The position numbers were made by a program, and so were the translations under genes. This document shows, in pieces, positions 2,484 to 31,502 of a stretch of 64,000 bases of DNA. Below the pieces are notes generated by a model. The model ran no database searches. It saw only the letters and a list, made by a program, of their open reading frames with translations, and was not told the origin of the DNA. How positions within the stretch are numbered: the first letter of the stretch is position 1; each line of letters begins with the position of its first letter. This DNA comes from Dictyostelium discoideum (lineage: Eukaryota): assembly GCA_000004695.1 (NCBI GenBank), contig CM000154.2:1184001-1248000 (forward strand). The letters run 5' to 3'.

Positions 2484-3724
2484 ATGCAACAAAATTTCTA
2501 TAGTAATTATACTAATAACAATTATTATAATAATTTTAATAATAATTATAATATAAGGAATAACCATTATTTAAATACAAATGATCATTCTAATAAACCA
2601 CCAATGCCAGAATTTAAAAAAAAATATATTCCAACATTTTTAAATAAATTAATTGGTTTACCACCATCTCATGATCCAGTTAGTTTATTAAAATTTAAAT
2701 TAAAAGTTTTAAAGATTTTAGTAATATGTTTTGGTTTTGTTGCTATGACCACTTCCCTTTCAATTATTAATTTTGAATCAAGATCAACATCATTCAAACT
2801 TGAACACCAAAATCAAACATATGTACCATCAGTTTACTTATTTTTTGAAGTTCCAAACTATAAAGACATATTCGGATTTGAATTTTTAAGGGAAAACGTT
2901 GCAACAGGAGCATATGATGAAATGGTTGTTCAAGGATTAAACTTAAATGATACAGAAGGTTTTACAAAATCTGGTGTATTTCAAAATTGTGTAGATACAC
3001 CAGATTTCAAAGATGGTTTCGTTATTTTAGATATTTTAGATGGTTGTTTATATTTATATGAAAATGAACAATTACTTGTAAGTATTTTTTTTTTTTTTTC
3101 CCAATCAAAATTAAAATTAAAATTAATATTAATATATTTTTTTTAAAAAAAAAAAAAAAAAAATAAAAATAAAAGATAAATATTTATAAATATTCAACAA
3201 ATGATATAGATCCTTGGTTTATTTCTATATATATTGATGATCAACCATTCTATTTAGACAGTACTGTTCAAATGTCAACCTCATTAACTAAATCAATTGT
3301 AACCAGCCAAAATGGTGACACAACTGAAAAATATAAATTATCAAGAGCAATGAGTTACCCCCAGAAAAATGTAACAGTAGGTGATTTAGTCTGTGATATA
3401 TATTCCTATGGCATTTTTTTTTCAAGTCACTTTGTGTTGCAAGAAAAAACTCAAACAAACTTTTTAGTAATAATTTCAATTCTTTCTAATATTGGTTCAT
3501 ATATTTCATATTTATTTATTGGTTCAGAAGTTATCTTTACTATGATAACAAAGTTTCTTATTAGAGACAAATCTGCATGGGTGGATGATGATGTAAGAGA
3601 ATGTATAATTTATCATTCAAATCAAATTAATACTGATAATTTATTAAGTGAAAATGAAAATAAAAATGATGATGATGGTGATGATGATGATGACAACATC
3701 AATGGTAATAATAATAATAATAAC

Positions 3725-3796
<72 letters not shown>

Positions 3797-4021
3797 GATG
3801 GTAATGATACTGATGGTAATGGAAATAATGAAGAAAGTGTAGAACAAAATCAAGGAATAAATGATGACCAAATAGAATTAGAGGGTGATAATGAAGATGG
3901 AGATGAAGATGAAGACAATCCAATAAACCCATTAATTATGAAGGATCAACTGGAAGAAGAAGATGAAAGAGATGAAGAAAGAAATAATTACTTTATTTTA
4001 AAAGATAGATCAATAAAATGA
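2484..4021 (+). CDS. Hypothetical TM protein with an Asn/Asp-rich acidic tail. Two exons: 2484..3077 and 3176..4021.
   Basis: The first in-frame ATG is at 2484 (the ORF track appears to begin some ORFs at TTG; here at 2412). GTAAGT donor at 3078. The acceptor AG at 3174-75 restores the frame of ORF 3272-4021; the stronger-looking ATATAG at 3210 gives an immediate stop. A hydrophobic helix, VLKILVICFGFVAMTTSLSII, is present. A coding (AAT)n run lies at about 3700-3790. Confidence 0.55.
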
Positions 4022-4180
4022 TCAAAATAAATATAAAATTTTTATTGTCCAAAATTAATGGATGATAAGAGAAGAAGACGAATCAGTTTTACAAGCTGTA
4101 CGAAATTAATCGATAATATAAGTTAAATAAACTATGTTTTTTTTTTTTTATTGTTAATTATTTAAAAATATAAACTTTAT

Positions 4181-4309
4181 TTAATTTTTATTTTTATTTC
4201 TTAAAGCAAGAAACATATCAAACTCATCGATAGAGGTTTCATCAATAACTGCTTTGTTGTTATTGTTATTATTTATAATATTACCAGAATTATTTAAGGG
4301 AGGTAATGG

Positions 4310-4369
<60 letters not shown>

Positions 4370-5898
4370 TAAAAATGTTCCAGGGTTACTTGAAGACATA
4401 TGATACATTGAAGGGGTTGGTGGACCAAAATCATTGAATGCCGATGATTGTGATAATGGTGATTGATCGAAAAAGTTTGAAGAGTGATAAGATGCTTGTG
4501 GAATCATACCAGAGCTATTTATTAATGGTGGTAATATTGATGATGTTGATGAAAAACTACTACAATTACTATTATTAATATTGTTGTTATTATTATTATT
4601 TAAATTATTACTTGTACTTGAAACTGACGGTATTTTATTTGAACCAGAAATTGATGAAGGTTGTTGAGCTGAAACAAATTGTGAAAAGAAAACCTCACCA
4701 GATTGAGCTATGCCATTGTTATTGTTACTAATTTGAGGTGTTGAAGTTGGTTCACCAAGTGGCCATCCATCTGTAAAAAATTTATTTCCATTATCAACTT
4801 GACTACCACCTCCACCTATTGGTAATGGTGATGTTGTAATATGAGTTTCCAAAGGATTATTTGAGAAGAAGTCACTACCACTATTTTTAGTTTGATTATT
4901 ATTATTTACAATTGAAGTTGTGTCACTTCCGTTAATGTTGTTGTTGTTATTGATGATGTTATTAGTGTTATTAATAGATTGAGGAGCAGGTGATGAACCA
5001 CTAACATTAATTGCAGAAGAAACACTACCAATAGTTGAAGAAAGTGGTGGTAATGGATTAAAATCATCAGCACCATTACTTGTATTTATTGGTGTTGAAA
5101 TCTGTTCCTCTTGAATTGATTTAACAATTAATGGTTTTGGTAAAGATGAGGAATGTTTTAAGCTTGTACCCAATACCTCCATAACTTTTGAAGAAGTTAC
5201 TTGCGGGAATTCACAATGATTAGTTGTATCATTACTATTTTGATTTGGATCGAATGATGAACCCAATAGAGATGGAGTTCTAACCACTGGATTAACTGTT
5301 GAATATGATCTTTGGTGTCCTCTATGAGAAAGCTTTAAACTCAAAACTGGATTTGGTGAATCTGGTGGTGGCATTAAAACTTTACCACAATTATTAAAAC
5401 CAATATTATTGTTTGTATTAACACCACCACTACTACCACCACCACTACTACCACTACTACCACCACCACCACCACCACCACTGTTATTTAAAGATCCACC
5501 AGAATTATTTAGACCAGATTTTTTAGAAATTGATAATGGAATTGAAAATTGTGATGGGGTTTCAGGTATTTTAAATAGGTTTTTATCGACAGAAGCACAC
5601 CTTTTAAATTCTTCAAACTCTAAATTTGTTGGTGTAAAATTTGAACCATTCATTGTAATAATTGGTGGTGGTGATGAATTACTATCCTTTCTTGGTGGTA
5701 AATTACCTAAATTAGAAACAGACTGACTAACCAATTGTTTATGTGGTAATGTTGGTGATTGTGGAAATAAAAACTCATGAATATCCTCAACCATCAAGTG
5801 ATGTTTATCATCAGGTGAAAACTTTTGATGTAATAATTCCCAAGGTATTGATTTCATTGGTATAAATATTCTTAATGGTCTGCTTGTTAATTTACCAC

Positions 5899-5983
<85 letters not shown>

Positions 5984-7739
5984 TATACTTGTTAAACCTA
6001 CTGTTGATGATGATCTGCTTTTTGTAATTAATCCATTTAATACTAATGATGGTAATTTTGATAATGATTCACTTTGATTTGATAGAATTTGTTTTCTATC
6101 AACACTTGCGCTACTATTAAAACTATTATTATTGTTTATATTATTGTTTATATTATTGTTATTACTATTATTATTATTATTATTATTATTTGCAATATTA
6201 TTATTAATATTATTATTGTTGTTTATATTGTTGTTATTACTAACATTATTGTTGTTATTGTTATTACTAACATTATTGTTGTTGTTGTTGTTGTTATTGT
6301 TATTGTTATTGTTATTGTTATTGTTGTTATTGTTATTGTTGTTATTGTTATTGTTGTTGTTGTTATTATTGTTTATATTATTATTATTATTATTGTTATT
6401 ATTCGCATTACTACCACTGACAGGTAAATTATTTAAATTACTATATCCACTATTATTATAATGACTATTAATGATATGATTAAGTGGGATTATACTATTT
6501 GCAATATCTGATAATGATTTATGATGTGATACAGATGATTTTAAAGGGGATGGTTTTAGTGATGAATCGCCACCACTATTACCACCATGAGATGGACTAC
6601 CCATTGTAAATGATGTTGATGTACTCTTTGTAATTGATGCTCCAGCATTCAATATTCCATTTGCTAATGATGCTAAATTTGATCTCTGTGCGCTTAATGT
6701 TGCTGTAATTAAATTTGAATGTGATGATGTTGGAATTGGTTGAGTTTGTTGTTGCTGCTGTTGTTGTTTTAAATCTGCGATTGTAACTGTTTTCGACCTA
6801 CCTACATTTGATAATGGTGGACTATTACCATTGTTGCTGTTGTTGTTATTTCCATTTCCACCTAAATTGTTGCTGCTACTAACTAAACCAGAAGCTGTAT
6901 TAAATCCATTAGTATTTCCTCTATTTAAACTGCTACTATTAATATTATTACTACTATTATTACTACTATTATTATTATTTATTACCTGACCACGACTGTT
7001 ATTAGTTACAGTACTTGAAGTTACTGATACCGAAGCAAGTGGAGGTCCGTTATTACTGCTATTACTATTATTATTATTATTATTATTACTGCTACCATTA
7101 CTATTACTACTACTACTATTTATACCATTTATTAAAGAAGCCAAGAAAGATCTATCCACACTACCATTGAATCTACCATTAAGTGGGTTTGAAGCTGGTG
7201 ATTTCATAACAGAGAGAGATTGTTGAGGTTGTAATTGTTTTTGTTGTTGTTGTACTTGTTTAGCTAATTTCTCTTTTTCCTTTTCTTTTTCTTTTTCTTT
7301 TTCTTTATTTCTAAGGGTATTATTAATTGAAGCTGTAACAGGATGTTTTAAATCATAAATTACTGCTTCTTTTTCAAAAATACCTGGGGGTGTAACACCT
7401 TTAAAATAATACTCTTCTCTCTCTGCTATGAATCTTTCAAACATTTGTGATGAACAAAATACATTAAAGAACTAAAATTAAAATTAAAAAAAAAAAAAAA
7501 AAAAAAAAATTACAAATTAGTATTTTTCTGTTTTTTTTACTTTTTTTTTTTTTCAATTATTAACTTACCTTTGTTGGAGTTATAAGTTGAGAATCAATGA
7601 AAGAAATTTTATCAAAAATCATTTTCTTTTTATCCATATCCTTTAAAAAGAACCTTCTATATGTACCCAATACTGTTACAAAAAATTTTCTAAATGTTTC
7701 AACTATTATTTTATTATCATAATGTTTATTTTCTAATTG

Positions 7740-7770
<31 letters not shown>

Positions 7771-8296
7771 AATATTTAATATTTATAAAATTAAATTAAA
7801 ATTTAAAACAAAGCACACCTACTTTTCCAATCAAGTATTTGTAATTCTAAACAATGTTTTAAAGGTTGTAATAAAATTGAAGGGAAAATTGCAATATCTT
7901 CTGGTAAAGGTAAAACTTGATCCTTATCTAAATCGACGAAAACTATTTCATTCAATGGTTTTCTTCTAATTGGTGCCAATAGTGATGAATGAATACCAAT
8001 TATGAATGGCATTGGAGCTGTACAATAATCCAATAATGATCTTGGTAAAATTGGAATGAATATATGTTGCCATGCAAATGGATCCAATAATGATACAATA
8101 GCATTTATAAATTTACTAACTCTATTAATATTCTCTGAATAAATTATAACTCTTCTTTCAAATAATAATGATATAAATAAGTGTAATAATTTTTGTGAAC
8201 TTAATGTTTCAATTAATGGTTGTAATGTTCCCTAAATATTAAAAAAAAAAAAATTAAAAAAAAAAAAAAAAAAGTTAATATATATTATAAAAACAA

Positions 8297-8335
<39 letters not shown>

Positions 8336-9059
8336 TTTATACATACATCATGTAATGAAGATTTATCAGTTGAAACTGGTCTTTTTAAAGTATATGATAC
8401 AGGTAAATTTGTTGGTTTTTTATCAGAGATGAAAGGATTGTCATAAATGTAAACAGTAAAGGAGTCACCTGGTGCTGGTATAACTGATAGGAGTGAGGCG
8501 GCTAAGAAATTATGAATCTCGTCTATTGAAACACGATAACGAGTTTCCAATATTTCCAACATTGATCCAAATGTGCTTGACCATGCATGATGACTTATTA
8601 TGCATAAACATTCCAATATTTTATTACCACCGCTACCATCGGGTTGTTGAGGTTGTTGAGTTAAAATACGTTTTGTAAAACCAAACTGTTGTTTACCTTC
8701 TCTATCTGTTAATACAAATGTAAACATACTATCTGTAACTCTAGTACTAGTACCACTGTATTGAATATATGTTTTATCTATTTCTTCAGGAAAACAAAAC
8801 AATGGTACATTTGGATCGACTGTATCTGGTGGATATATATCTTTAACATATGGTACTATCGATTGTTGTACTCCACCATTTGCTCCATCTTTTTCAACTA
8901 ATAAATTAATAAACAATTAATAATCAAACTTCTACAAATATTACTTATTATTATTATTATTATTGTGGCTACGTTGTTGTGGTTACTAAAATAATATATT
9001 AACTTACCCTCCTTTAAAGAAACTAATAGAAATTGATCAAATAATAGTTTTTTTGACAT
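4181..9059 (-). CDS. DENN-domain protein (uDENN, cDENN and dDENN in the N-terminal part) followed by a ~1000-aa Asn/Ser/Gln-rich low-complexity tail. Five exons: 9059..9008, 8897..8347, 8231..7823, 7732..7569, 7471..4181.
   Basis: The encoded core reads LLFERRVIIYSENINRVSKFINAIVSLLDPFAWQHIFIPILP...FVDLDKDQVLPLPE. Upstream it reads FCFPEEIDKTY...FTFVLTDREGKQQFGFTKR. All donors are of the GTAAGT type (GTAAGTT, GTATGT, GTAGGT, GTAAGTT), all acceptors are AG, and all phases are consistent (1,0,1,0). Exon 1 encodes MSKKLLFDQFLLVSLKE. Exon lengths sum to whole codons. Confidence 0.85.
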
Positions 9060-10945: not shown

Positions 10946-13900
10946 TTAATCAGTAGTATCAGAGGCAGATTGGTAGAGTGGATTTTCAGCGGCAGATGCA
11001 GATTGTTCATAAAGTGGATTAGAGCTAACACCATCACCAAGGAAAGCGGCTTCACTAAAGAAAGTATCAGTTGGTGGTGCAGCTTTTCTTAATAATCTCC
11101 AAGCTGCGGCAGCAATTAAAGCAGTACCAGCGGCAGCACCAGCAATAGCACCTGTTAAAACGGTCTTATTGTCATTGGTTTGAGTGGTGGTTTCTGCTTC
11201 TTCAAATGTGACATCAACATAACCAGTTGCATTCATATGTGATTGAGCTCTAATGGCTGATGGTGCATTGTAACCTAAATCATCAACAAAGAGTTTAAGA
11301 CGATAGTTACCAGCAGTTACAGCATTGACAGTAATTGTTTGAATTGATTCATTGAGAGCAGATTTAGTATCGAGACATGAAATAGATGCAAGTGAAGTGT
11401 GGAGTTCACAATTTTGCATTCTTTTGAGTGAGATTTTAATATCTTCAAGTGATGCAACATTTTCATCATTTTCACCAACAATTGAAACTACAATTGAAAC
11501 ATTATTGCTTTTACCGGAATCTGGATCATCAAATTGAACATTTTCAACTGAAAGGGCTAACTTGGTAGTGGTGGAATAGGTTTTATTTCCGGCAAGAACA
11601 AATGGTGGAATGTTATATCTGTTAACGTTGATAACTGCTGTTAAGGTTGGTGAATCGAGACCACCATTATCTGTCATGAAAAATGGAATACGTACATAGC
11701 TATTACCAGATGAATCCGGGACAGGTGAATATACAACATAGTAATAGCCATCACTACTTTGCTCGACAGTTGTATGGTTACGATCAATAATAGAGCCTTT
11801 TAAGTCTGGTACAGTTTCATCTTTGGTATATAAAGTACCACGAAGTGCTGTGGTGACTGTTGAAAGTAATGGAGTGACTTGATCAACATCAACATCACTA
11901 CCAGTGTATTTGATTAAAACGGATGTATTGATATTCATATTGACAATATAGGTTGAGTCAAATAATACCTCACCATTATCTTTGGAAGTGTCATCTAAAA
12001 CCTTGTAACTAATTAATTGGATTGTTGGTGGTTGATTGACATGAATAACATTGACGGTGATAGTGTAAAGTTCAGAGTAAAGATCACCATCAAACAATTT
12101 GAATTCAATAAAATCGAAATCATTACCATATTCATTATGTGGTGGCATGTATGCAAAATTGTAAGAGGTTGAACCAGTTTGTGAATTTGGATAGGATGTA
12201 ATTTCTGTATCCATAGTACCTTCGCTACCCATGCTATGGGCAATTGATAAAGTACCTCTACCAGAGAATTTCAAAACTTGAATATTAACTTCAGAACCAC
12301 CATTTCCAACTTTACCTTGAACGTTTAATGGATAACGAGTGTTTTGTAAAACATCAATTACATCGGCTCCGGTGTAAACTGGTGGATTTCTTGGTCTGAC
12401 ACTAAAGGTAACTACGTCTGAATCTGATACAAGACCTTGTTGATCAACAACAGAGTATGGAATTGAATCTAATGGACCAATGTTATCAATGGTATTCCAA
12501 TTGGAAAGACCCGCATTTGGTTTGTATGAAAGAGCATCTAATTCGTAAGTTTCTTCACCAATTAATTTTGATGTAAGAACAACATTACCATTCAAAAGTT
12601 GACCATTGGCTGGGAGAGCATAAATCTTAGCTTTGAGGTCTGATGGCGATTCAATATCAGTACCATTGAATGTGAATGGTTCGGTTGTATCTTGATCGAG
12701 TTCAACTTGAATACCTTTTGTAGTTGGTGGAGTGTTAATATAGGTAAATTGGACAAAACCAGTTACATTACCAGTTGATAATACACCATATGGAGTGGTT
12801 AATTTAGAATCATCTTTACAGCTAATTATAAAGGAATCAGAGAAACTACTGAATGGAGTTGGTGAAATTTTAGATGCATCCAATAATTTGAAACTATAAC
12901 TATTGCTTGAGAGCGATTTTGGAAGGGTGGTAATTAATTCATTTTCTGAATCGTACATACTGATTTGCTTTGGAGCTGCTTGAACTGAACATAATACATT
13001 ATCACCATCAAAATCATAGGTAACCAATGTTTGAGTTTCACCAGCACCACTTTGAGATGTGAATGAGTAGGAATTGACTGTTAAAGTTGGTTTATGATTA
13101 ATTGGGTTAACAGTGACGGTTGTACTTTCAACTGATGACGTTTCTTTGAAAGTATCCATAACTTGATATGAATAACTATCAGTACCCTTGAAACCAGGAT
13201 TTGGTCTATAGTAATGAGTGAATGGTGCGTTTCCTTGAGTGGCAACGTTGTTACCATTTTGGACAGTAACTAAAATACCATTTGATGGTGGAGTGGTAAT
13301 AATAGCAATTAAATTATTAACATTTGGTGGATTGTAATCATCGATATCAGCATCGGTACCAGTTACAACATGTGCATCAGAATCTAAATAATCTTGATAA
13401 ACACTGTAATCTTGAATTTTAGTTACAACTGGTGCAACATTGGCACGATCTCCAACAATATTTACAACAACAGAGACAGTGTTTGATTCTAAACCTTCAT
13501 CATCAGTTGATGTGAATGAAATGGATGCATAATTTGAAATTGCGGAAGGTTCTCCATTGGTGAAACAAATAAGTTTATTGGCTTTTGTTGAAGAGTATGA
13601 GATACCAGAGAATTGATCTTTAAGAGAAATAATGGTGCTATCAGATGAACCAGAAGTACATGAACAATCATTAGTTGAACAGGTGTAGAAATTACCATTA
13701 TTACCATTTTTAATTGCAGTAATGGTGAATAATGCTTTTGTGGAATCTGAATCAGTTGATACCAAAGTTAATGAAACAGAACCTCTTGGAATTACTGAAA
13801 TTGGTGATGTTGATGATGAAACTGGTGCTACATTTGCATGTTGAATCTTGAAAGAAACTGAACAAGAAGCTTGTGAGAATGCATTTGATGTATCAATAGC

Positions 13901-16821
13901 TCTAAATTCTAATGTAACAGTGGCATCATTTTTTGGATTAACAGTTTGAGTGAAAATAACACTATCTCCAGTTGTAATTTTAGTTGATGAAGTAATAGAA
14001 GCACCTTTGTAAGTGAATGTACCGTAGGCAGTTAAATCAGTTGGTTTAGTAAATTGGAGGAATGGTGAGGCGTCTTCAAAATCAGTTGCAGTCATACTGA
14101 ATGTTGATTGGGTATTTAAGGTTGTTGTGATTGTTGATGAAATTGATGAACATTCTGGTAATTGATTTACTTTGTTGATGGTGATTGAAATTGTTGCATA
14201 GGTATTACTTTCGACACAACCATCAAAAGCAACAAATCTAATAGTATTTGAGGCTAAATAATTTTCGAACGGTGTATAGGTGAAAATTTCAGAGGCTGCA
14301 TAATAATTTGATTGTTGTTTTGAAACATCTTTACCATTGCTATCGGTAATAACACCAGCATTAGCTGTTAAGAATGTAGTGAATTTGAATTGTAAAATAT
14401 TTGCATCTGGATCAGTACCTGTTAATTTGAAAGTGGCTAATGAATTTTGATTGACAGAGAATGAACCTGAAGTTGCAACTGGTGGACGATTGTAATTGAT
14501 TGAAATATCAGTTTGACCATAACCCATTGCAGAAATTGTAGCAACTGGTGAAACAATTGTTGTACCTGATGGAAGTGATAATTTAAGACCATTGACAGTT
14601 TGTTGAGTTGATGAAGATGATGAAACTGTAACAGTTGATGGGACACTTGAAACAAATGAAGAACCAGTTGCAGTTGGATCAGATTTATAAACGATTTTGG
14701 ATAAAACATTCTTTACACCAGTATTAGCTTTAGCAGACCAATCACTAGCTGATGTTCCTGAAGCGGTAACAACACTACCAAAACCAGCTGAAGTGAGAGC
14801 TGAATTCCAATTAGTCATAGATGAGGCACCAAAACTAACGACCACTGGTACAATTGATTTTCCAATGAATTTATTTGTGAATGCAGTGATTTGTGCTGAA
14901 CTAGATGAATGATCACTATCGGTAATGATAACAATAACTTTGAATGAACCAGAATTCCAACCAACTGAAGCACTTGCAGCATCAGTAGCAGCCAAGAGTG
15001 AATTTCCATTAGAAGTGGTTGAATAAGTTGCTGGTTTATAAAGTCCAATGGCTGCAGCAATTGGACTACCCATAACTTGTGATGGACTAAATGAAATTGG
15101 TGATGGGGTGTAATCAGAGAAATAACCAATACCAAATTGAGCGGTTTCACAAATATTTTCAATGTTTGAAACAAATGTTGACATACCAGATTTAATATAA
15201 CCAAAGGCAGTAGTTGAAGCAAGATTGGCATCAACTAAAACGTAAACATCGAGATTATTAATTGGGTTTGGAATACTAACAATAGTTGGTACTTCATAGT
15301 TTGGTGTACTTGTGAGATAAACTTGAACTTTGGTTGGATTAACAAATGATGGATTACTGTATGAGATTGAGGTGTTGCTATTTGATAAATCTTTACAACT
15401 TTGAGATGATGAAATACTGCAATCGGCACCAGTCCAACCATTAGAACATAAACATTTACCATCACCATTAATACCACTATTTGGAACACCATTTACACAA
15501 GGTGGAACGGCAACACAATTTTCACCATAATAACCATCTTTACATTCAAAACATTTAGATGCTGGATCCCAATTATCAACACATTTACAAACACCACTCT
15601 CTGTATAACCACCATTACCACAATCTGGTTTAGCCACTAAAATTGTAAAAGAACGAACCGATGATGTTAAACCAGTTGAATCCGAGCAAACAAGAGAAAC
15701 AACATATGAACCGGTATTTGCAGTTGTTGGTGTCCATGTAATGGTTGTATTGGAGGTGGCACCTGTAACAGGAGTTTTGGTAGTGACACCAACTGGAAGA
15801 TTTGCAGTTTGAATGGTTGTTGATCTTCCAGACATAATAGTTTTACAAGAGAAAGTTAAACTTGTAGAGGCACCAATTGGGAATAATTTTGTATCACCAT
15901 CATCTGGAGTTGGTGGAGAGACAAAATCTGGTGGGTAATTACTAGTAGTACAAGTATCGATTGTGGTTGAACCACTGTTTGTGCAACCTTTACATTGAGA
16001 GTTTTGATTACATGCTGTACCAGCGTTTGAACATGTTGGATCACAAGTACCAGGTTCAGCAACTGATTGAAGAATGAAATCCACAACAATGTAGGCACCT
16101 CTTGAATCTAAAATATAAATTTGAGTTGAATAAAGACCAATTTGAGTTGGAAGGAAATAACAGTTACCTTTGGAATCAATTGTCATACCACTTGGTTGAG
16201 TCATTGTATAAACTTTTGAAAAGGAGAAAGTGAGTGCTGATGAGTCTGCATTTTGAACATTTTGATCGGATGCAATAACACGGAAGTTATTGTTTTTATT
16301 TGCAACTACTTGAACGATTGGAATCATACCAGATACTGGTGACCAATTTACCATTGACAATTCATTTTTATTATCGATTTGTACACTTGTTGTAATATTC
16401 CATGATGCATCTTTATTATTTAAAAGAGAACTAATTCTACAACAACTTGTGAAAATGGCGGTATATTCTCTAATTGTTCCAGAGTTTTGAGCTGGATAAG
16501 CTTTGGTTGTCGTGAAAGTACCTGTGAACCAATTATTTTTAACATCAAAATCTGTAACTGTAACAGAGACTGTTACTGATCCAACACCACTTCCAAAATT
16601 TAATGTACCAACATTAACTAAATTTCCAACCTTAATACTTGATGTTGATGAATAGAAAAAGGTTGTTCTATATGCAAAGTTTGATGTGAATTTGATGGTT
16701 CTATAATCTGTTGTTGGTTGCCAACTAATTGTACCAAAACGGAAATGTGATGCTTTGGAAAAAAAAAAATAATAAAAAAAAAATTTAAAATTAATATTTT
16801 TTTTTCACCTTTTCTGTTTAA

Positions 16822-16852
<31 letters not shown>

Positions 16853-16961
16853 TTTATTTGGGAAATAATAAAAAAAAAAAAAAAAAAAAACATTATTACT
16901 TACCATCAGTTAATATAAAAAGTGAAGCTATTAAAATAAATAGGTAAAATAATTTATTCAT
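10946..16961 (-). CDS. Sib-family (similar to integrin beta) adhesion receptor, paralog 1 (A/C-like), ~1955 aa. Exon 1 is 16961..16904 (signal peptide); intron 16903..16753; exon 2 is 16752..10946.
   Basis: Signal peptide MNKLFYLFILIASLFILTD. Cys-rich EGF-like repeats (CKCVDNWDPASKCFECKDGYYGENC...). A VWA-like region, then long Ig-like/cadherin-like repeats. A single TM helix (LTGAIAGAAAGTALIAAAAW). The cytoplasmic tail RLLRKAAPPTDTFF...NPLYEQSASAAENPLYQSASDTTD carries two NPxY motifs, as described for Dictyostelium Sib proteins (talin-binding, integrin-beta-like). Confidence 0.9.
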
Positions 16962-17314
16962 TTTGTTAAAAAATTTTATTAATTATTAATTTATTTATTT
17001 AATAAAGTTAAAATAAAATTTAAATTAAAAAAAATAAAAAAAATAAAAAAAATCCAGAAACTAAACCTGGCCAAAGAAATTTATTCTTTGTTTTTTAAAA
17101 ATACAGTGTGGTAATAATAAAATAGAAAATAGTATAAATGATTAAAAAAAACTTTTTTTTTTTTTTACTTTTTTTTTTTATTTTATTTTATTTTTTTTTT
17201 TTACTTTTTTCTATTTTATTTTATTTTATTTTTTTTTATTTTTTTTTATTTTTTTTTTTGAGTAACCATAAAAACGGATCTGTCAAATTTTTGTTAAAAA
17301 GTGTCAATTCGTTG

Positions 17315-17331
17315 GAAAAAAATCTAGATTT
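17315..17331. promoter_or_regulatory. Candidate cis-element GAAAAAAATCTAGATTT. It contains the perfect 12-bp palindrome AAATCTAGATTT and lies ~360 bp upstream of the paralog-1 ATG.
   Basis: The identical 17-mer recurs at 24890-24906, upstream of paralog 2. It sits inside a locally GC-richer island (17270-17350) in an otherwise >85% AT spacer. Confidence 0.35.
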
Positions 17332-17737
17332 CGTGAATATTTTAGATTTGCGCAAAAAAAAAATTGGTCCAAACAGTTTAAATTAATTTATTTTTTTTTT
17401 AATTTTTTTTTCATTTTTTTTTCATTTTTTTTTCATTTTTTTCATTTTTTTTTCATTTTTTTTTATTTTTTTCATTTTTTAAAAGATATTTTTTTTTTTT
17501 TTTTAAAAATAAAACACTTTGCCAAATGATGGGCGAAAATAAAAAATTTAAAATAAAAAAAAAAAAAAGGCTAAAATTGGATTGTGAATTTTGTGATATG
17601 GAACCATTTAAGTACTTTTTTGTGATATTTAACAACCTTTTACAAAAAAAAAAATAAAAAAAAAAATAAATATTAAAATAGTTTTAAATGAAGATAAAAG
17701 GGAATTTCATTGTTGTTATCAATTTTTTTTTTTTTTT

Positions 17738-17741
17738 AAAA

Positions 17742-17780
<39 letters not shown>

Positions 17781-17845
17781 ATATATAAATAAATAAATAA
17801 ATAAATAAATAGATAAATAAATAAATAAATAAATAAATAAAATTT
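17738..17845. repeat. (AAAT)n tetranucleotide microsatellite
   Basis: About 25 tandem AAAT units with a few interruptions, read directly from the sequence. Confidence 0.95.
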
Positions 17846-17886
17846 TTTTCAAAATAAATAAATTAAATAAAATAAATTAAAATTTG

Positions 17887-17960
<74 letters not shown>
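17887..17960. repeat. Poly(A) homopolymer, ~74 nt
   Basis: An uninterrupted A run in the spacer between sib paralogs 1 and 2. Confidence 0.95.
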
Positions 17961-17962
<2 letters not shown>

Positions 17963-18241
17963 AGGTCTGGTCAATTTCGCCTCATTCAATTCTTTGGAAT
18001 ATTTTTTTTTTTTTTTTATTTTTTTAAAATAATTTTAGTGTTTTTTTTACACTGTTATTATATTGATATTATAAATTATTATTTAAATAAATATAAATAT
18101 TTTATTATTATTATTTTATAATAATTAATATTTATTTAAATTAATTTATTAAATAAAAAATAAAAAATAAAAAATAAAATAATAATAATTTATTTTTTAA
18201 TTTATAAAATTATTTGTTTTTTTATTTATTTTTTTTTTTTT

Positions 18242-21200
18242 TTAATCATCGGCACCTTCATAAATTCTTGATACATATGATGTTTCAGATTTTTCGTAAA
18301 TTGGACTACTTGAAACATCACCCATAAAAGCACCTTCATCAAAGAAAGTATCAGTTGGTGGGGATGATCTTTTTATCATTTTCCATAAACCAATTACAAG
18401 TAATGCTGCACCAGCAGAAGCACCAGCAATTGCGCCTGATAAAACTGTTTTATTGTCGGTATTTTGGGTGGTAGCAATTGGGTCATTAATTATAATATTC
18501 ACATATCCAGTTGCATTTAAATGTGATTCAGCTCTAACTGTTGATGGTGCACTATAGCCCAAATCATCAATGAATAATTTTAGACGATATTTTCCACTAA
18601 TTGAACCAATGACTGAGATTGTTGATATTGATGCATTAAGAGATTTCTTTGATCCAATACATGTGATAAGGGCAAGATTTAGATTTGGGTTACATTTGGG
18701 AGTGGCTTGAGTAAAGGATAATTTAATAATGGAAAGTGGTAAAACTTCATCACCATCATTATCATCAACAATTGATACAATTAATGAAATATTATTATTA
18801 ACTGAATCTGGATCATCCAATGTTATATTTGTAATTGAAATGGTTAGATTAACTTTACCTACAAAAGTGTTTGAATTTGATCCAATGTAGATTTTTGGTT
18901 GAAGGTTAACAGAGTTTACATTTATAATTACAGTGGAAGTTTGTGACACAACTCCTTTTTCATCGATAACATTAAATGGAACACGAGCATAATTATCACC
19001 AGTTGTACCTTTAGTTGGTATGAAAATTACATACCAATAGCCATCTTCATTTAGTGGAATTAATTGAGATGTATGGTTGATTTCTCTTCCTAAATAGTCT
19101 GAGGAGTTATCATCAAATGAATAAATTAAACCACGAAGTGGAAGATTTGAAACTAAAGCAACTAAAGGGACTGTTTGGTTATCTATATCACTACCATAAA
19201 TTTTAATTAGTACAGAATCATTAACATTCATATTAATTGTTGAACCATCAATTTGAATTTCTTTTTCAAATTGATTTAAAATTCTATAACTTATTAATTC
19301 AGTGGCTGGTGGTTGATTCACATGAATAACATTAACTGTAATATTATAAATTTTAGAGATAATATCATTATCAAATAAAATAAATTGAATTTGATCAAAG
19401 TTTGAACCAAATTGATTTCTTGGTGGATTATATGCAAAATTGTAGGATGTTGAACCAAGTTGTTGGCTTGGGTACTCTGTTATTAGTTTATCAAAGAAAC
19501 CTTCTTTACCCATACTATGGGAAATTGATAAATTACCTCTACCACTGAAACTTAAAACTCGTATACTAACAGATAAACCGCCTCCACCAAGTTCTCCCTC
19601 AATTGTTAATGGGAAACGAGTATTTTGTAATACACTAATATCAGAGTCACCAAGGTAAATTGGTGGGTTTCTAGATCTAACTTGGAATGATATTGTTGAA
19701 GAAGGAGATAAAAGACCTTGTGGATCGACGATTGAGTATGAAATTCTATCCAATGGACCTAAATGATCCACTGTATCCCAATTTGATTGACCTGGTAAAG
19801 GTGTATATGTTAATTCATCCAAACCAAAAGTATTGTCTCCACCAATCAATTCTTTTGTCAAAACCACATTGCTATCAATGGATTTGGAAAGTTTACCATT
19901 GATTGGTAGAGAGTACAATAAAACTTTTAATAGCTTTTCATTGGATTCAATATCAGAACCTTCAAAAGAAAATGCAATGAATGAATCTTGTGAAAGTTTA
20001 ACTGAACTAATATTAGTTTTTGGTGGAGTGTTTATGTAATAGTATTGAACATTACCTATTACATCACCTGTTGACAATACACCTTTTGGTGTTGTTTTTT
20101 CACTATCATCAACACAGTTAATGCTAAAGGTACTTAAAACATTCGAAAATGGGGTTGGTGTAATGATTGAAGGGTCCAACAATTTAAAACTATAGGCATT
20201 ATTTGGTAACACCATTGGCACTGATTTTATTTGCACACCTTTGTCATCATACATAAGGATTTGTTTTGGAAGGGATATTACTGAGCAAATTACATTATCA
20301 CCATCTTGGTCACTGGTATTTAAAGTTTCTATAACCCCATCACCACTCTCTGATGTAAATTTATAAACATCAATCAAAACATTTGGTTTATGATTAATTG
20401 GTTTGATAGTAATAGTTGTAGATTCAATTGATGATTTTGCATTAAATGTGTCAATAACTTGATATGAATAACTATCAGTACCAGCGTACCCTGGATTTGG
20501 TCTATAATAATGAGTGAAAGGTGCATTTCCTTGAATGGCTATAGAACTACCATTTTGGACAGTAACTAAAATACCATTCGATGGTGGATTTGTAATTATA
20601 GCAATTAAATTATTAGCATTTTGTGGATTGTAATCATCGATATCAGCATCGGTACCAGTTACAACATGTGCATCAGAATCTAAATAATCTTGATAAACAC
20701 TGTAATCTTGAATTTTATTTACGACTGGCGCAACATTAGTACGATAACCAACAATATTAACTATTACAGTGGCCAAATTTGATTCTAAACCTTCATCATC
20801 AGTTGATGTGAATGATATGAATGCATAGTTTGGAACTGCAGAAGGTTCTGAATTGGTGAAACAAATTGGAAGACTGGCTTGATTTTTGGCGTATTGAATC
20901 TGTGAATACTTTGTATTGTCAGTAATATCGATACGATCATTTGATCCAGCAACACAAGAACAGCTATTATCAGTGCATGAATAGAATGTACCTGTTTTAC
21001 CAGCATTAACCTTTTTTATGGTAAATATAGCAGATTTTGAATCTATATCAGTTGATAATAAAGATAGGGGATTCCCGATACTTCTTGGAATAGTAACAGA
21101 TGTTCCATCATTTGAAATTGGTGCTTCATTCGTATGTGTAATATTAATAGTTTGGGTACATAAATTTGAAAATAAACCAGATGAATCTTTTGATTTGAAA

Positions 21201-24185
21201 GTCAAAGGAACTAAAAGATTTAATGGATTCTTTGTTTGTTTGAAAAGTATTTTCACACTCTTTTTAATTATTGTATCTATAGTTACTTTAGCACCAATAT
21301 ATGTTAGTTGTCCATATTGTTCTAAGGATGCTAGCTCTGAGCTCACAATAAACTGTGCATTAAGAATTAATAGTTGATCATCATCTTCAAAATCAGTAGC
21401 AGTAAATGAAAAATCAACCGTTTTTTCAAATTCAGATATAACAATAGCTGAACTACATTCAGGTGGTTGATTCACCTTATTGATAGAGAATGAAACTTTT
21501 GCACTTGAATCACTAGTTAAACAACCATCATCAGCAATAAAACTAATATACAATGATTTCAAATAGTTTTTATAAGGTGAAAATGTAAATTTTTCACTTC
21601 CTGCGTATAATTCATCCTTTTGAGTTGAAACATCAATACCTTTACTTGTTTTAATTAAACCTTCTGTACTCGATAAAAATGATGTAAATTTAAAGGTCAA
21701 AATATTTCTATCTGGATCAGAGCCTTCCAATTGAAATATAGCATCAGAGTTTTGATTACAAGAAATTCCAAATGGATTTGGTGTTGGTGGATGATTGTAG
21801 TTTGTTTTAATATCGATACAACCATATCCTATAGTACACACTCTAAGTGATGGATTTATACTACTATTGTAATTGATTGGTAAAGATAAAGAAAGACCAG
21901 ACAAAGTTTTGACAACTTCAATATCTGCATCTATAGGTAAATTTTCTGGAATTGATTTTAAAAATGCAAGACCACCAGAGTTATCATTAACTTTAAATAT
22001 AATATTCTGTAACACTCCATTACCTAATACTGAGCTTGATGTTTCTTTGAATGCTGTCTTTACAAAATTTTTCCAACCTTGAGCATCAGATGATAATTTA
22101 TAAGCTCCAAAACCACATTGATATAATGTTGAATTCCAATTACTTAGAGAAACATTAATTCCAATAACTACAGGAGCAATTGACTTTTCAATGAATGCAT
22201 TTTTAAATTCATCTATTTCTGTTTGGATGGGACTTAAAGGAAGATCTGTTCTTGGTATAATGATCATAGACTTAAAGGCATTCGTTCTCCAACCTAGTGG
22301 AGTCTTTGCTGCTTTGGTTGCAGCCGATAAAGATTTTCCTGTAATTGTATGATTATAGCCACTCCATTTTTTATTTTCTAGTGATGTTACAATAGAGTCT
22401 GATGGAATTTTAGCTAAATCAGCGAATAAACCATTTTCATCAATAATGCCCAACCCAAATGATACACTTTCAGGAGATAGTTCCAAAATTTTCGTTTTGG
22501 CGTCATTCAATTGAGATAGAATATTGTTGAATTCATTTTGAGTGTTTTGATTAATATCAATCAAAAAGTAAACATCAATTAATTTATTTTTCTCTGGAAT
22601 TTTAATATTGACTTGTATTTGATACTTTTGATTATTTGCCAAATATACTTGAATGCCTACTGGGTTAATATATGATTGCTCCATAATTGAAGAACTAACA
22701 ACACCACTTTTTAATGACCCACATGATTGACTGTTTGAAATTGAACAATCATCGCCAATCCAACCATTGTTACAATAGCATTTACCATCACCCAAAATTC
22801 CACTATTGGAAACACCATTGACACAAAGTGGCACAGCAATACACTTTTCTCCATAATATCCTTTTGAACAATCTAAACAATCACTTTCAGAGGTAAAATT
22901 CTTTGGACAAACACAAATACCTTTATCTCTAAATCCCCCATTTGAACAATCAGGTTTTTCTTTTAGAAAAAATTTAAAAATTAATAAAATTAAATTTATA
23001 AATAAAATAATTAAAAAAAGAAAACTTACTAATAATAATTTCTATTGAAGTTGTAATTTTTATCAAAGAGTCGGTACATACTATATATTTAACATATGTT
23101 CCATAATCTTGAAAAGATGTCGGGAACCATAATAAATTTATTGTTGATTTTGGTCCAATTTCTAAAATTTTTGTTATGAAACCAATTGGAAAACCGACAG
23201 GTTGAATAGTTGTGTTTAAACCAATTGCATCTGTTGTACAAGAAACATTAAAACCTTCATTTTGCTCACCAATAACAAATGTTTGTGTTTGATTGGGCTT
23301 TGGAGTTGGTGGGTAAATAAAAATAGGCTTTGTTGATAAACAAGCGTCTTGTGTTTTATTATATACTAAATTGCCACAATTAATACAGTCACTGTTTTTT
23401 GTACAAATTTCACCACTGTTATTGCACTGATGATGACAAAACCCATTTTGTATCTCTGATTGGAGGATAAAGTCAAGAGTTATATACGCACCATTTTTAT
23501 CTGTAATTATTACCTTTGCGCAATATAAACCAACAGATGATGGCATGAAATATACCATACCAGTGTTTTTATCAAGTGTCATCCCATCAGGCTTTGCTTC
23601 GCCAAATGTAAACACAAGATTAGAATACTCTCCAGGTCTGAGATGTTGATCAGAGGCAGGGATATTGAAATTATTATTTCTACCATATGTTACTGGATAG
23701 ATAGGTACCATTCCTGATACTGGTGACCAATTAATTTTATCAAGTGAATTACTATTATCAATTTGTACCAATGATTTTATTGTAAAATCACCATCTTTTT
23801 CATTCAAAAGAGTACTGATTCTACAGCACAACGAATAGAAGGCAGTATAGTTAGCAGTTTTTCCTACTTCCAATGTTGGGTATGTGTGGGAAAATACTGA
23901 AGTGCCAGTAAACCAATCATCTTTAGAGTCAACCGTTGTTAGTATTAATTGATAAGTACTCACAACATTATCTCCAAAATTGAAAGAAATTTTTATAAAA
24001 TCATTTTTTTGGGGCAAATTGGAGAACCAGGCACTGGTTCTGAAGCCAAGGTCAAGAGTAAATTGTATTTCATTGTATTGAGTAGTTGGTTGCCATTTAA
24101 ATGTACCAAACCTAATATGAGAAGCTTTTATTATTAAAAAAATTATAATAATATAAGAATTTTTGTTTTTTTTTTTTGATTTTTA

Positions 24186-24231
<46 letters not shown>

Positions 24232-24299
24232 ATTTTACCGTTTGAGAAAGTTATCAAAAAATAAATAAAAAATAATAATTTTACAACAAAACTAAACAT
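18242..24299 (-). CDS. Sib-family adhesion receptor, paralog 2 (divergent), ~1958 aa. Three exons: 24299..24239 (signal peptide), 24124..23030, 22959..18242.
   Basis: Signal peptide [20 protein letters not shown], phase-1 GTAAAA donor. Exon 2 begins [15 protein letters not shown]..., parallel to the other paralogs. There is an extra 70-nt intron (GTAAGT...AAAAG) inside the EGF-like region. Same overall architecture as paralog 1 (EGF-like, VWA-like, repeats, [21 protein letters not shown]). The tail reads ...[21 protein letters not shown]; both NPxY motifs are replaced by SPIY and SRIY. Confidence 0.85.
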
Positions 24300-24666: not shown

Positions 24667-24765
24667 AATCCAGCCAACCAAATTTTTAAGTAAAAAAAAA
24701 AAAAAAAAAAAATATTTTCCAATTTTTTTTTCAAAATATCCATTTTTTTTTGAGGTTGGCTGGAT
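24667..24765. repeat. Inverted repeat ATCCAGCCAACC (24667-24678) and GGTTGGCTGGAT (24754-24765), flanking a ~75-bp A/T spacer. It could form a hairpin or be a MITE-like terminal inverted repeat.
   Basis: 12/12 reverse-complement match read directly from the sequence. Such GC content is unusual in this intergenic DNA. Confidence 0.6.
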
Positions 24766-25104: not shown

Positions 25105-25156
<52 letters not shown>

Positions 25157-25764: not shown

Positions 25765-28700
25765 TTAGTCAGTATTATCAGAGGCAGATTGATAAAGTGG
25801 ATTTTCAGCGGCAGATGCAGATTGTTCGTAAAGTGGATTGGCATTAACACCGTCACCAAGGAAAGCGGCTTCACTAAAGAAAGTATCAGTTGGTGGTGCA
25901 GCTTTTCTTAATAATTTCCAAGCAGCAGCAGCAATTAAAGCAGTACCAGCGGCAGCACCAGCAATAGCACCTGTTAAAACAGTCTTATTATTAGTGGTTT
26001 GTGTGGTAGCTTCTGGTGCATTAACTTTAACATCAACATAACCAGTTGCATTTAAATGTGATTGAGCTCTAATGGCTGATGGTGCATTGTAACCTAAATC
26101 ATCAACAAAGAGTTTAAGACGATAGTCACCAGCAGTTGATGCGATAACAGAAATTGAAACAATTGAACTGTTGAGTGGTTTCTTTGGTCCAATACATGTG
26201 ATTGAAGCTAAAGTTTGATGATATTCACACATTGGTGATTGAGTGAATGAAAGTTTAATATCTTTGAGTGATGCAACTTTGTCATCTTTTTGACCAACTA
26301 TTGAAACAACAATTGAAACATTGTTAGTTGTAGAATCTGGATCATCAAATTGTACACCCATTACAGAGGCAGTTAAATTGGTTTGAGTTGTGTAGTTTTT
26401 GTTACCAATGATTACAAATGGTGCAATATTGACAGTATTAACATTGATTAACACTCCGACGATTGGTGAATTAAGACCGCCATTGTCAGTCATAATAAAT
26501 GTAATACGTGCATAACTTTCACCAGAGGTTTTTTTTGATGGTACAAATACGACATAGTAAAAACCATCAGCATTTTGTTCAACATTTGAAGAGTTACGAG
26601 TGATTGGCGCACCTGATGAATTTGAAGCAGTTGGATTATAAGCGTAAAGCGAACCTCGAAGTGGGAAATTTGGAATCATTGAAATTAATGGAGTAACTTG
26701 ATCAACATCAATATCATTACCAGAATATTTAATTAGGACAGTGGTATTAATATTCATATTAATTAATGAAGTATTTTCAAATAAGACTTCACTTGAAACG
26801 CCATCTAAAATCTTGTAACTAACTAATTCGATTGTTGGTGGTTGGTTGACATGAATAACATTAACAGTGACTGTATAAAGTTCAGAGTAAAGATCACCAT
26901 CAAAGAGTTTGAAGTAAATGAAATCAAAATCATTACCATATTTATTACGTGGTGGCATGTATGCATAGTTGTATGAAGTTGAACCAGATTGTTGATTTGG
27001 ATATGATGTAATTTCTGAATCCATAGTACCTTCGCTACCCATATTGTGAGCGATACTTAAAGTACCATTGTTAGTGAATCCAATAACTTGGATATTAACT
27101 TCAGAACCACCACCACCAATTCTACTAGTGATAGTTAATGGATAACGAGTGTTTTGTAAAACATCAATTACTCTTGCACCAGTATAAACTGGTGGATTTC
27201 TTGGTCTAACACTAAAGTAAACGATATCAGAATCTGATGTAAGACCTTGTTGATCAATGACAGTGTATGAAATTGAATCGAGTGGACTTTGTTGATCAAT
27301 GGTATTCCAATTTGAAAGACCTGCATTTGGTTTGTATGAAAGTGCATTAAGGTTGTATGTTTCAGAAGCAATATTTGTTGTAGTAAGAGCAACACCAGTA
27401 GCGTTAATTAAAAGTTGACCATTGATTGGTAATGAAAGGATTTTAACTTTAATATCATCTTTTGGTGTTTCAATATCAGAACCATTAAAAGTGAATACTT
27501 TGACTGTATCTTGATCAAGTTGAACAGTGCCACCTTGAGTAGTTGGTGGAGTATTAATATAAGTATATTGAACATTAGCAGTTACTACACCAGTTGATAA
27601 TGTACCAAATGGAATAGTCTTTGTAGTAACATCAGTACATTTGACAGCGAATGAACTTGAAACACTTGTGAATGGAGTTGGAGTAATTTTTGATGGATCT
27701 AATAACTTGAAACTGTATGAAGTACCAGAGAGAACAGTTGGAACTGATTCAATTAAATTACCATCTGAATCATACATACCAATTTGACTTGGAATGGAAA
27801 CAACTGAACAAATAACACTATCACCATCTGGATCACTGGTGACCAAGTCTTGAGTTTCACCATCACCACTTTGAGATGTGAAAGAATATGAACTGACAAC
27901 AACACTTGGCTTGTGATTAATTGGGTTAACAGTGACGGTGGTACTTTCAATTGATGACCCAGCTTTGAAAGTGTCAACAACTTGATATGAATAACTATCA
28001 GTACCCTTGAAACCAGGATTTGGTCTATAGTAATGAGTGAATGGAGCTTTTCCTTGAGTGGCAGCAATGCTACCATTTTGAAGAGTAACTAAAATACCAT
28101 TGGATGGTGGAGTGGTAATTATAGCAATTAAATTATTAACATTTGGTGGATTGTAATCATCGATATCAGCATCGGTACCAGTTACAACATGTGCATCAGA
28201 ATCTAAATAATCTTGATAAACACTGTAACCTTGAATTTTAGTTACAACTGGTGCAACATTAGTACGATTACCAACAATATTAACGACTACATTGACAGAA
28301 TCTGATTCTAAACCTTGGTTATCAGTTGATGTGAATGAAATGGATGCATAATTTGAAATTGCGGAAGGTTCTCCATTGGTGAAACAAATAAGTTTGTTGG
28401 CTACTTTGTTGGTATAAGAAATTGATGTGTAGGTTGTAGTTGTAGAAATAGAGGTATATATGTTGGTTTGAGTAGAATTACATGTACAATCATTGGTTGA
28501 ACAAGTGTAGAAATCACCCTTTGCGCCCTTGTTAACGGATTTAATGGTGAATTTTGCAGATGTTGAATCTGAATCAGTTGATACCAAAGTTAATGAAACA
28601 GAACCTCTTGGAATTACTGAAATTGGTGATGTTGATGATGAAACTGGTTTAATATTTGTATGAACAAGTTTAACAGTTAATGTACAAGTACTTGTAGAGA

Positions 28701-31502
28701 TTGCACCAACACTATCGACAGCTTGGAATGATACTGGAACATCAATAGCATTGGTTGGATTAACGGTTTGGGTAAATGTGATTTCAGAACTAGTTGGAAT
28801 TTTAGATGTTGAAGTAACAGCAACACCACCAAAAGTTAATGTACCATATGCAGTTAAATCGGTTGGACTAGTGAATTGAATGAATGGTGTGGCATCTTCA
28901 AAATCGGAAGCACTCAATACAAATTTGTTAGCAACATTCAAAGTTGGTGAAATTGTTTTTTGTTGACAAGTTGGTAATTGATTGACTTTGTTGATGGTGA
29001 TTGAAACGGTTGCAGATGTAGTACTATTAAGACAACCATCATTGGCAACGAAACTAACACTGATTGGTAATAAATAGTTAATGGCTGGAGTGAAGGTGAA
29101 AGTCTCGGTTGAATCGTAATATTTACTTTTTTGGGTTGAAACATCTTTATTATTACTATCGGTAATAACACCAACGTCACTTGTTAAGAAGGTAGTGAAA
29201 GCAAAGGTTAAAATATTGAAATCTGGATCAGTACCTGTTAATTTAAAGGTAGCAAATGAATTTTGATTTACAGAGAATGCAGTTCCGGTTGGAGTTGGTG
29301 GACGATTGTAATTGATTGAAAAATCAGTTTGGCCAAAACCAATTGCTGAAACTGATGCAACTGGTGATACGATTGAGGTTGCTGATGGTTTGGTTAAAAC
29401 AAGACCACTAACGGTTTTAACGGTATCAGCGGTGGAAGATACAGCGACATCTGATGGTGTGGATTTAACGAATGAAGCGCCATTGGTTGTATTATCGGTT
29501 TTATAAACAACATTTGATAAAACACTCTTTAAACCAGCTACAGCTTTAGCAGAGATATCGATGGATGTAGCAGCAGAGACAGTGCTATAACCAAAATCAG
29601 CGGTTGAAATTGCTGAATTCCAATTTGGAATTGATGAGGCACCAAAACCAACAACAACTGGCGCAATTGAATTTGAAATGTAAGTATTGACGAAATTAGT
29701 TATAGCAGCAGAGTTTGAAGAATGATCTTTATCGGTAAGTACAACAATTGCTTTAAAGGAGCCAGAGTTCCAACCATTTGAGTTTGATGCAGCATTTGTT
29801 GCACCCAAAAGTGAATTACCACTTGAGGTTGAAGTATAAGATGAGACAGCATAACCATTGATAGTATTAACGATATTGCTACCAATGATTGAACCTGGAG
29901 CAAAATTGAAACCAGATGAAGAGGCATCACTGAAATAACCAATACCAAATTGAGTTGTTTCGCAAATACTCTTTGAAACCTCAGTGACAAATGTTGAAAT
30001 ACTTGATTGAACAACACCAAAGAGAGTTGATGAGGCGACATTGACATCGACTAAAACGAAAACGTCAATTTTTGTTAATTTTTGTGGAATGTTTAATGAT
30101 GTAGTTAAAGCGAAATCACTTTCGATATATAGTTGAACTTTGGTTGGATTGACAAAGAATGATGGAACAGAGGTGGAGAGGAGAATAGAATTTTTCAAAT
30201 CTTTACAACTTTGAGATAATGGAACATCACATTTATCACCACTGTAACCATTGATACACATACATTTACCATCACCTAAAATACCTTCATTTGGAATACC
30301 TTTATCGCATGGTGGGGTTGGATCACAATTTTGACCATAATAACCGGTACTACAATCGAAACAATTTGAAGTTGGATCCCATTTATCACCATCACATTTA
30401 CATTTACCAGTTGAAGGATCTTTATGACCATTACCACATTCTGGTTTAGCAATGAAAATTGTAAATGAACGAGATGATGATGTTAAACCATTTGAATCAT
30501 AACAAAAGATTGAAGTTACATAAACACCAACATTTGCAGCGACTGGAGTCCATGAAAGAATATTTTTAACTGTACCTTGACTTGAAGTTCCTTCTGCAAT
30601 GGCTGCACCAGCTGGTACATTAGCAGCTTGGATACCGACAGTTCTAGTTGTATAATCTGATTTACATGAGAGTGTGATACTATTTGGTTGACCAACAGTG
30701 AATGGAATTAATTGATTATCTTGTGGGGTTGGTGAAACAAAGTATGGTGGATAATTAGTTGTTGAACAAGTATTGCTAGTTGTTGAACCAGCGTTGGCAC
30801 AATTTTTACATTCTGAATTACCATTACATGTTGCACCACCATTGGAACAACTTGGATCACATTTACCTGGTTCAGTAATTGATTCTAAAATGAAATCGAC
30901 TACGGCATATGCTGGTGGAACGGCATCATCTGTGATATAAATTTGAGTAGAATAAAGACCAACTGAAGTTGGTAAGAAAAAAACATGACCAGTACTATTG
31001 ATTTTCATTCCAGATGGTTGGGTCATTGGATAAACGGTTGAGAAAGAGAATGAAAGTTTATCATCAACATTTGGGTCACTTGCAATAACACGGAAGTTAT
31101 TATTTTTGTTGGCAATAACTTGGACAATTGGTAACATACCTGATACTGGTGAATGATTTACTGATGGCCAATTTTTGTTATCAAGATAAACACTACTAGT
31201 AATGTTCCAATCAGCATCTTTATTATTGAGAAGTGTACTAATTCTACAACATGATGTAAACATGGCAAGATATTGTTTTGAGTTGTTTGGAGTTAAGGCA
31301 GTATAGGTTTTAGTAAAGATAAATTGACCAAAGAACCAATCATTCTTGGTATCAAAACTGGTCACAGATGCCCTAACTGATGTAGATGAACCATCACCAA
31401 AAGTTAAAGTACCAAGAGTAATTTTTTCTCCAATTACAATTGATGATGAGCTTGTTTTATAAAATGTAGTTCTAAATGCGAAATTTGTTGTAAATTTAAT
31501 AA

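Follow-up and report, generated by a model that had tools for sequence, protein, structure and literature searches.

A short segment of the tandem Sib genes of Dictyostelium is very probably a tract of recurrent gene conversion

How do genes that are clearly diverged over most of their length come to have in common one short segment that is nearly identical, even at synonymous sites? The question is raised by the Sib genes in a 64-kb window of the Dictyostelium discoideum AX4 reference genome (the window is the whole stretch of DNA that was analysed). Sib proteins are integrin-beta-like substrate-adhesion receptors of Dictyostelium (PMC9197732, PMC4510845), and the family, SibA-E, was first described by Cornillon et al. 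2006 (cited in PMC9197732 and PMC4510845). A protein search with three long minus-strand open reading frames (ORFs) of the window gave close Dictyostelium homologues. In a residue-by-residue comparison these ORFs are 100% identical to the AX4 proteins SibC, SibD and SibE, and therefore the window contains the AX4 reference sibE-sibD-sibC tandem array. The genes, sibC (copy c1), sibD (c2) and sibE (c3), are in the same orientation and ~7.3-7.5 kb apart. We found that a segment of ~450 nt in these genes has been homogenized repeatedly within each genome and evolves at a normal rate between species. With high probability, interlocus (ectopic) gene conversion between the tandem Sib paralogs recurs in this segment; that is, it evolves in concert.

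We measured identity and divergence along a protein-guided codon alignment of the three genes, using the Nei-Gojobori method (NG86) for synonymous (dS) and non-synonymous (dN) divergence. Nucleotide identity reached a maximum of 0.95-0.97 in all three pairs at ~13261-13411 (sibC coordinates), compared to typical values of 0.5-0.7 elsewhere. Thus, a near-identical segment in three otherwise diverged copies, first noticed in a preliminary description made from the letters of this DNA alone, is real. The island is somewhat wider than described there: it is 420-480 nt long and continues ~125 nt past 13445, the end given earlier, toward higher coordinates. Maximum-likelihood (ML) segmentation placed its boundaries at 13570..13088 in sibC, at 20866..20450(20384) in sibD, and at 28389(28395)..27973(27916) in sibE. 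Combining the low-divergence segment with the trough in dS and the exact run (below), we define the island on the minus strand as 13088..13570 in sibC (core 13253-13441), 20450..20866 in sibD (core ~20549-20737), and 27973..28389 in sibE (core ~28072-28260). Differences between copies were 7-14% inside the island and 28-41% elsewhere. By pair, the ML segmentation gave divergence of 13.5% in the island vs 40.6% outside for sibC and sibD, 7.3% vs 28.1% for sibC and sibE, and 11.5% vs 40.2% for sibD and sibE.

The homogenization reaches synonymous sites, and it does so beyond what is expected by chance. In sliding windows, dS dropped from ~1.0 (sibD compared to the others) to 0.08-0.17 in the island, and dN dropped from ~0.4 to 0.03. 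In the core (~190 nt) dS was 0.07-0.13, compared to 0.5-1.0 in the flanks, with ~0.9-1.0 for the pairs that include sibD. That is, sibD is otherwise saturated relative to sibC and sibE, and the island is its only tract of low dS. The central 40 codons had no synonymous and four non-synonymous differences. Uninterrupted series of codons for the same amino acid that lacked any synonymous difference reached at most 38, 46 and 39 codons in the three pairs, and these longest series were all inside the island (permutation p = 1e-4, 6.5e-4 and 5e-5, respectively), and synonymous differences were significantly depleted in the island relative to the rest of the genes (Fisher p = 4e-6 to 4e-9). The longest run identical in all three copies was 83 nt (13327-13409, 20623-20705 and 28146-28228); the next longest was 27 nt. 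The conservation of synonymous sites among copies had been claimed before, with the proviso that a sliding-window dS from a machine alignment might erase it. Instead, dS in the machine alignment falls sharply in the island. A string of 71 nt given earlier as an example of the identity occurs exactly three times in the window, compared to an expectation of zero.

We compared the window with syntenic loci from seven other assemblies, as had been suggested for the sib loci of other dictyostelids. These loci are from D. discoideum strain ACTFIR (L003) and an AX4-like long-read assembly (L008), the cryptic sister species D. cf. discoideum (L009), D. citrinum (L006, L007), D. dimigraforme (L002, L005), and D. 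firmibasis (L001, L004). The arrays in the compared assemblies contain four tandem genes in the order E-X-D-C, where X is a paralog that is absent from the AX4 reference. The island had been described as common to three paralogs. It is found in those three, and the fourth, X, has it too. In multi-species codon alignments (17 and 23 sequences), the mean distance between paralogs of one genome was 0.09 in the island, and the distance between orthologs of different species was 0.19-0.21, the same as across the gene. The ratio of within-genome to between-species distance was 0.44 in the island, compared to 1.2-2.3 elsewhere. Between species, dS (0.27-0.9) and dN (0.04-0.24) in the island and its core matched those in the flanks, and dN/dS of the island did not rise relative to the flanks. 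Because the between-species rates equal those of the flanks, we infer that there is neither a constraint on the nucleotide sequence of the island nor an unusual constraint on the protein that it encodes.

Phylogenetic trees of the island grouped sequences by species, and trees of the flanks grouped them by paralog. Neighbor-joining (NJ) trees of the island had bootstrap values of 100 for D. firmibasis (all four paralogs), 92-95 for D. dimigraforme, 95-99 for C, E and X of D. citrinum, and 88 for C, E and X of D. discoideum. SibD of the discoideum-citrinum group fell inside the discoideum-citrinum clade and not with SibD of D. firmibasis. In contrast, NJ trees of both flanks had a SibD clade (bootstrap 100) and a SibC clade (95). 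The paralogs diverged before the speciations of D. discoideum, D. citrinum, D. dimigraforme and D. firmibasis.

Counts of informative sites in quartets gave the same picture. In the quartet of C and D from AX4 and C and D from D. firmibasis, the island had 27 species-type and 3 paralog-type sites, compared to 75 species-type and 534 paralog-type sites in the rest of the gene (Fisher p = 3e-20). Nine of ten quartets had p < 2e-5, with Fisher p down to 1e-22. A sliding quartet scan located the species-type signal at ~13588-13240 (sibC coordinates).

Individual lineages also carry their own marks in the island. A 3-codon insertion is common to the copies of D. firmibasis and D. dimigraforme; SibD of D. 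firmibasis has only its first codon (aac). The C, E and X copies of D. citrinum have several synonymous changes in common. In D. cf. discoideum, SibX (ORF 3230-9041) and SibD (ORF 11325-17193) are 100% identical over 96 nt in the island core. Over this stretch, both have lost the same 15 nt (YNPPNV to Q) and both carry five derived substitutions; SibC of D. cf. discoideum and all D. discoideum copies lack every one of these changes. There are also differences between strains: in a clustered 3-nt patch, sibD of AX4 reads GCA CAT GTT, as do sibC and sibE of AX4, and sibD of strain R reads GTA AAT ATT. The exact 71-nt string is present in sibC, sibD and sibE of the window and in E, X and D of the AX4-like long-read assembly (that is, in every AX4-lineage copy covered), and is absent from all Sib copies of the other strains and species compared. 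These lineage-specific marks indicate that homogenization is ongoing at a within-species scale and is recurrent in at least five lineages. It proceeds in tracts of tens to hundreds of bases. The earlier suggestion of recent conversion between paralogs is therefore strongly supported as to conversion, and needs to be modified as to recency: there was not one recent event.

The SibD-type gene of D. dimigraforme (L002, 18217-21749) is a truncated remnant. It spans only SibD residues ~558-1686, and its reading frame shifts near 19533; the annotated product has 1224 aa and does not match any Pfam family. Downstream of the island, this remnant is 81-84% identical to SibD of D. citrinum and AX4, 75% identical to SibD of D. 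firmibasis, and 65% identical to C, E and X. Inside the island, it is ~80% identical to every paralog type alike, as expected of older exchanges.

In SibC, the island encodes residues ~1081-1241. These comprise the end of one Ig-like repeat and a Big_9-like repeat (NVAP...INHKP, residues 1124-1241, encoded at 13441..13088); the match to Pfam Big_9 is weak and covers residues 1124-1228. The tract also takes in ~130 nt of the repeat before this one; it therefore lies across a domain boundary and does not correspond to one exact module. Amino-acid identity among the three copies in the island is 0.85-0.92.

Several other processes might make paralogs look alike. An element acting at the nucleotide level (a structured RNA, an antisense transcript, or a splicing or regulatory signal in the coding sequence) would constrain synonymous sites equally in all copies, and between the three copies of this genome such sites hardly vary. 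The preliminary description had offered such an element (RNA or antisense) as an alternative to conversion. Between species, however, dS in the core is 0.36-0.90, as high as in the flanks. In addition, there was no Rfam match at E ≤ 1 in 12600-14000, the minimum free energy (MFE) of the folded core did not differ from that of shuffled sequences (z = 0.04 sense and -0.05 antisense), no plus-strand ORF of at least 40 aa is present opposite the island, and a scan for inverted repeats found only one weak 12-nt repeat. Nor would an embedded element cause copies to cluster by species and to have joint indels. We consider it very improbable and have set this part of the earlier proposal aside. Identical codons could also result from very strong purifying selection on the protein module, given that Dictyostelium has a strong A/T codon bias. 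The amino-acid identity among copies is in keeping with this, as is a baseline codon identity at conserved residues that is already ~66%. So too is the rank of the module in deep comparisons: comparisons with D. purpureum and Cavenderia place it only in the top 3.5-17%, indicating that it is modestly conserved. In D. purpureum we found only two unlinked Sib homologues, in which the identity of the module is 0.43 compared to a mean of 0.35, and no comparable island was found there. Against such selection, the core has a dN of 0.19 between SibC of AX4 and SibC of D. firmibasis, with 0.23 and 0.19 for the flanks on either side, and identity between these orthologs is 0.74 in the module, close to the mean of 0.71. 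SibB, which is outside the array (~56 genes away by locus-tag numbering), has an identity to SibC of 0.49 in the module, compared to a gene mean of 0.51. A codon background of 66% also cannot yield 38-46 consecutive identical codons (permutation p ≤ 6.5e-4). The ortholog and SibB controls thus reject protein constraint, bearing out the earlier view that selection on the protein alone is insufficient, and we regard this explanation, too, as highly unlikely. Even less credible is an artefact of the 2005 AX4 reference, in which reads from different paralogs would have been collapsed. The reference does have a collapse or deletion just 3' of the sibE island, switching from gene E to X (see below). 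However, the independent AX4-like long-read assembly carries the exact 71-nt string in E, X and D and shows no differences from the window across sibD and the 5' part of sibE, and every other strain or species assembly has its own homogenized island.

It is also possible, although unlikely, that conversion is the mechanism and that selection for an identical module in all tandem Sib receptors maintains the tract. The same segment is homogenized in all five lineages examined, the very diverged sibD included, and the module is uniform within a genome and yet has a normal protein rate between species. If this were so, SibC residues ~1081-1241 would be an extracellular interface that all tandem Sib receptors must present identically, perhaps to a common cis-partner or ligand, for hetero-oligomerization, or in a processing step. 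Conversion would then be the vehicle that spreads new variants, allowing the module to evolve between species and to stay matched across paralogs. Several points speak against selected uniformity. Between-species dN/dS in the island is not above that of the flanks, the tract crosses a domain boundary instead of fitting one module, no partner is known, and a neutral, self-sustaining identity trap (described below) accounts for the same data.

Recurrent gene conversion, whether or not such selection contributes, is the explanation we favor. In the tract paralogs are closer to each other than orthologs are, and the reverse is true in the flanks. The phylogenies of tract and flanks are incongruent, and derived substitutions and indels are confined to the paralogs of one lineage. 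These are the features by which concerted evolution is recognized. From what is established about homologous recombination, we expect that a break in one of the Sib genes would be mended by this pathway (synthesis-dependent strand annealing) with a neighboring paralog as template, and each repair would copy a few tens to a few hundred bases. Initiation of conversion would need a stretch of near-perfect identity, and each event would restore that identity. Because the identity needed for initiation would be renewed with each event, the tract would be self-perpetuating. The flanks of sibD (~60% nucleotide identity) would be too diverged to participate.

Some observations fit less well with recurrent conversion. 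The fraction of G and C at third codon positions (GC3) is 0.10-0.13 in the island, compared to 0.16-0.19 gene-wide; it is not raised, and thus there is no signature of GC-biased conversion. Such a signature often accompanies conversion; it is frequent, but not defining. In the quartet of sibC and sibD from AX4 and D. citrinum, the island is mainly paralog-type (3 species-type to 13 paralog-type sites), indicating that homogenization of sibD partly predates the split of these two species and is patchy. The conversion events are read from the sequences that they appear to have left, and these sequences mostly do not tell donor from recipient. Nor does recurrent conversion by itself explain why this segment alone is shared with sibD.

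The process at the Sib genes is an ordinary and well-known one in gene families, of which the island is a clean new example. Long-lasting conversion has been described in mammalian gene pairs (PMC2720389), in the CEACAM/CEA family (PMC7042247), and in Caenorhabditis paralogs (PMC3966223). As in these families, paralogs resemble each other more than orthologs do over a discrete tract, tens to hundreds of bases long, synonymous sites are homogenized, trees of tract and flank are incongruent, and the genes are arranged in tandem in the same orientation. Unlike in these families, one short internal segment is common to all of the Sib genes, including sibD with its saturated synonymous sites, and the island lacks the GC-biased signature. 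Closer to home, the recognition genes tgrB and tgrC of Dictyostelium have been inferred to undergo interlocus conversion or non-allelic recombination (bioRxiv 10.1101/2025.10.22.684067; PMC12745789). Like the Sib genes, these are clustered paralogous genes for cell-surface proteins in the same group of organisms, analysed with the same generation of long-read assemblies, and in both cases paralogs that intermingle in trees are read as the result of conversion or non-allelic recombination. The process at the tgr genes is discussed as one that generates diversity under diversifying selection; in contrast, the process at the Sib genes homogenizes one segment, with no excess of dN/dS. The papers on Sib proteins that we found in the literature library searched cover function and trafficking, and none of them mentions conversion or an island of identity.

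With the island, a social amoeba offers a well-documented example of concerted evolution limited to part of a gene and lasting across lineages. Because the segment is homogenized, orthology of Sib genes cannot be read from it, and trees or dN/dS estimates that include the island will mislead. One extracellular module of the main substrate-adhesion receptors of Dictyostelium becomes a candidate for a shared functional surface. On the practical side, primers, guide RNAs or antibodies directed to the island will hit all of the tandem Sib genes.

The genes that contain the island are all on the minus strand and have the following main exons. That of sibC is at 10946..16360 and encodes SibC residues 151-1954 (100% identity to P0028/Q54JA5). 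That of sibD is at 18242..22834 and encodes SibD residues 428-1957 (100% identity to P0041/Q54JA4, DDB_G0288197), with an upstream exon ORF at 22974..24017. The main exon of sibE, as it is in the AX4 reference, is at 25765..31365 (100% identity to P0038/Q54JA3). A Pfam scan found the domains of the Sib family (SIBA-E_N, Ig_SIBA-E, vWA_SIBA-E, and Ig_SibA), and SibC, SibD and SibE have a vWA domain, a glycine-rich transmembrane (TM) segment, and tails with NPxY motifs. The base composition of the window is AT-rich. The spacers between the Sib genes (16750-18250 and 24120-25650) consist of extreme A/T homopolymer and short-period low-complexity DNA, ordinary for Dictyostelium, with no sign of common unique sequence. 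Compared to their orthologs in strain ACTFIR, sibC, sibD and sibE have dS of 0.05-0.12 and protein differences of 3-5%, values that seem high for one species. They could reflect high polymorphism of Sib genes, variation driven by conversion, or a divergent lineage.

We found that, relative to the AX4-like long-read assembly, sibE in the AX4 reference is a hybrid of gene E (5') and paralog X (3'). This is apparent from the profile of mismatches between the window (25191-28716) and that assembly. From the 5' flank down to ~27,900, the reference sibE matched gene E with few or no mismatches. Further down, from ~27,300 and on across the 3' intergenic DNA, it had no mismatches to X, and E differed at 90-117 of every 200 positions. 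The switch from E to X lies within ~27,916-27,316, where E and X have 3 differences in the first 200 nt and none in the rest. It follows from this profile that the reference lacks ~7.5 kb and one Sib paralog relative to the long-read assembly, either by collapse during assembly or by unequal crossing-over in the stretch where E and X are identical. The missing paralog and the hybrid sibE matter for knock-outs and quantification of Sib genes done with the AX4 reference.

The newer assemblies contain five Sib clusters (B, C, D, X and E), and five Sib genes are named in the literature, with sibA as DDB_G0287363 (PMC3919814). These matching counts make X a candidate for sibA; that is, X may be sibA. 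Paralog X is itself a mosaic in most of the species compared (loci L001, L002, L003, L006, L008, and L009). In D. discoideum, D. citrinum and D. dimigraforme, the 5' part of X clusters with the SibC of the same species; in D. firmibasis this part clusters with SibE. The 3' part of X clusters with the same species' SibE wherever both sequences were available. The mosaic structure indicates that concerted evolution acts on a large scale across the array and is not limited to the island.

There is also a second tract common to sibC and sibE, at 10946-11341 and 25765-26160. It is 86-93% identical in nucleotide sequence, and most of its synonymous sites are identical. It is at the 3' ends of the genes and encodes the end of the proteins that comprises the transmembrane segment and the cytoplasmic tail. 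This tract is not present in sibD, and in the reference the sibE part of it comes from paralog X.

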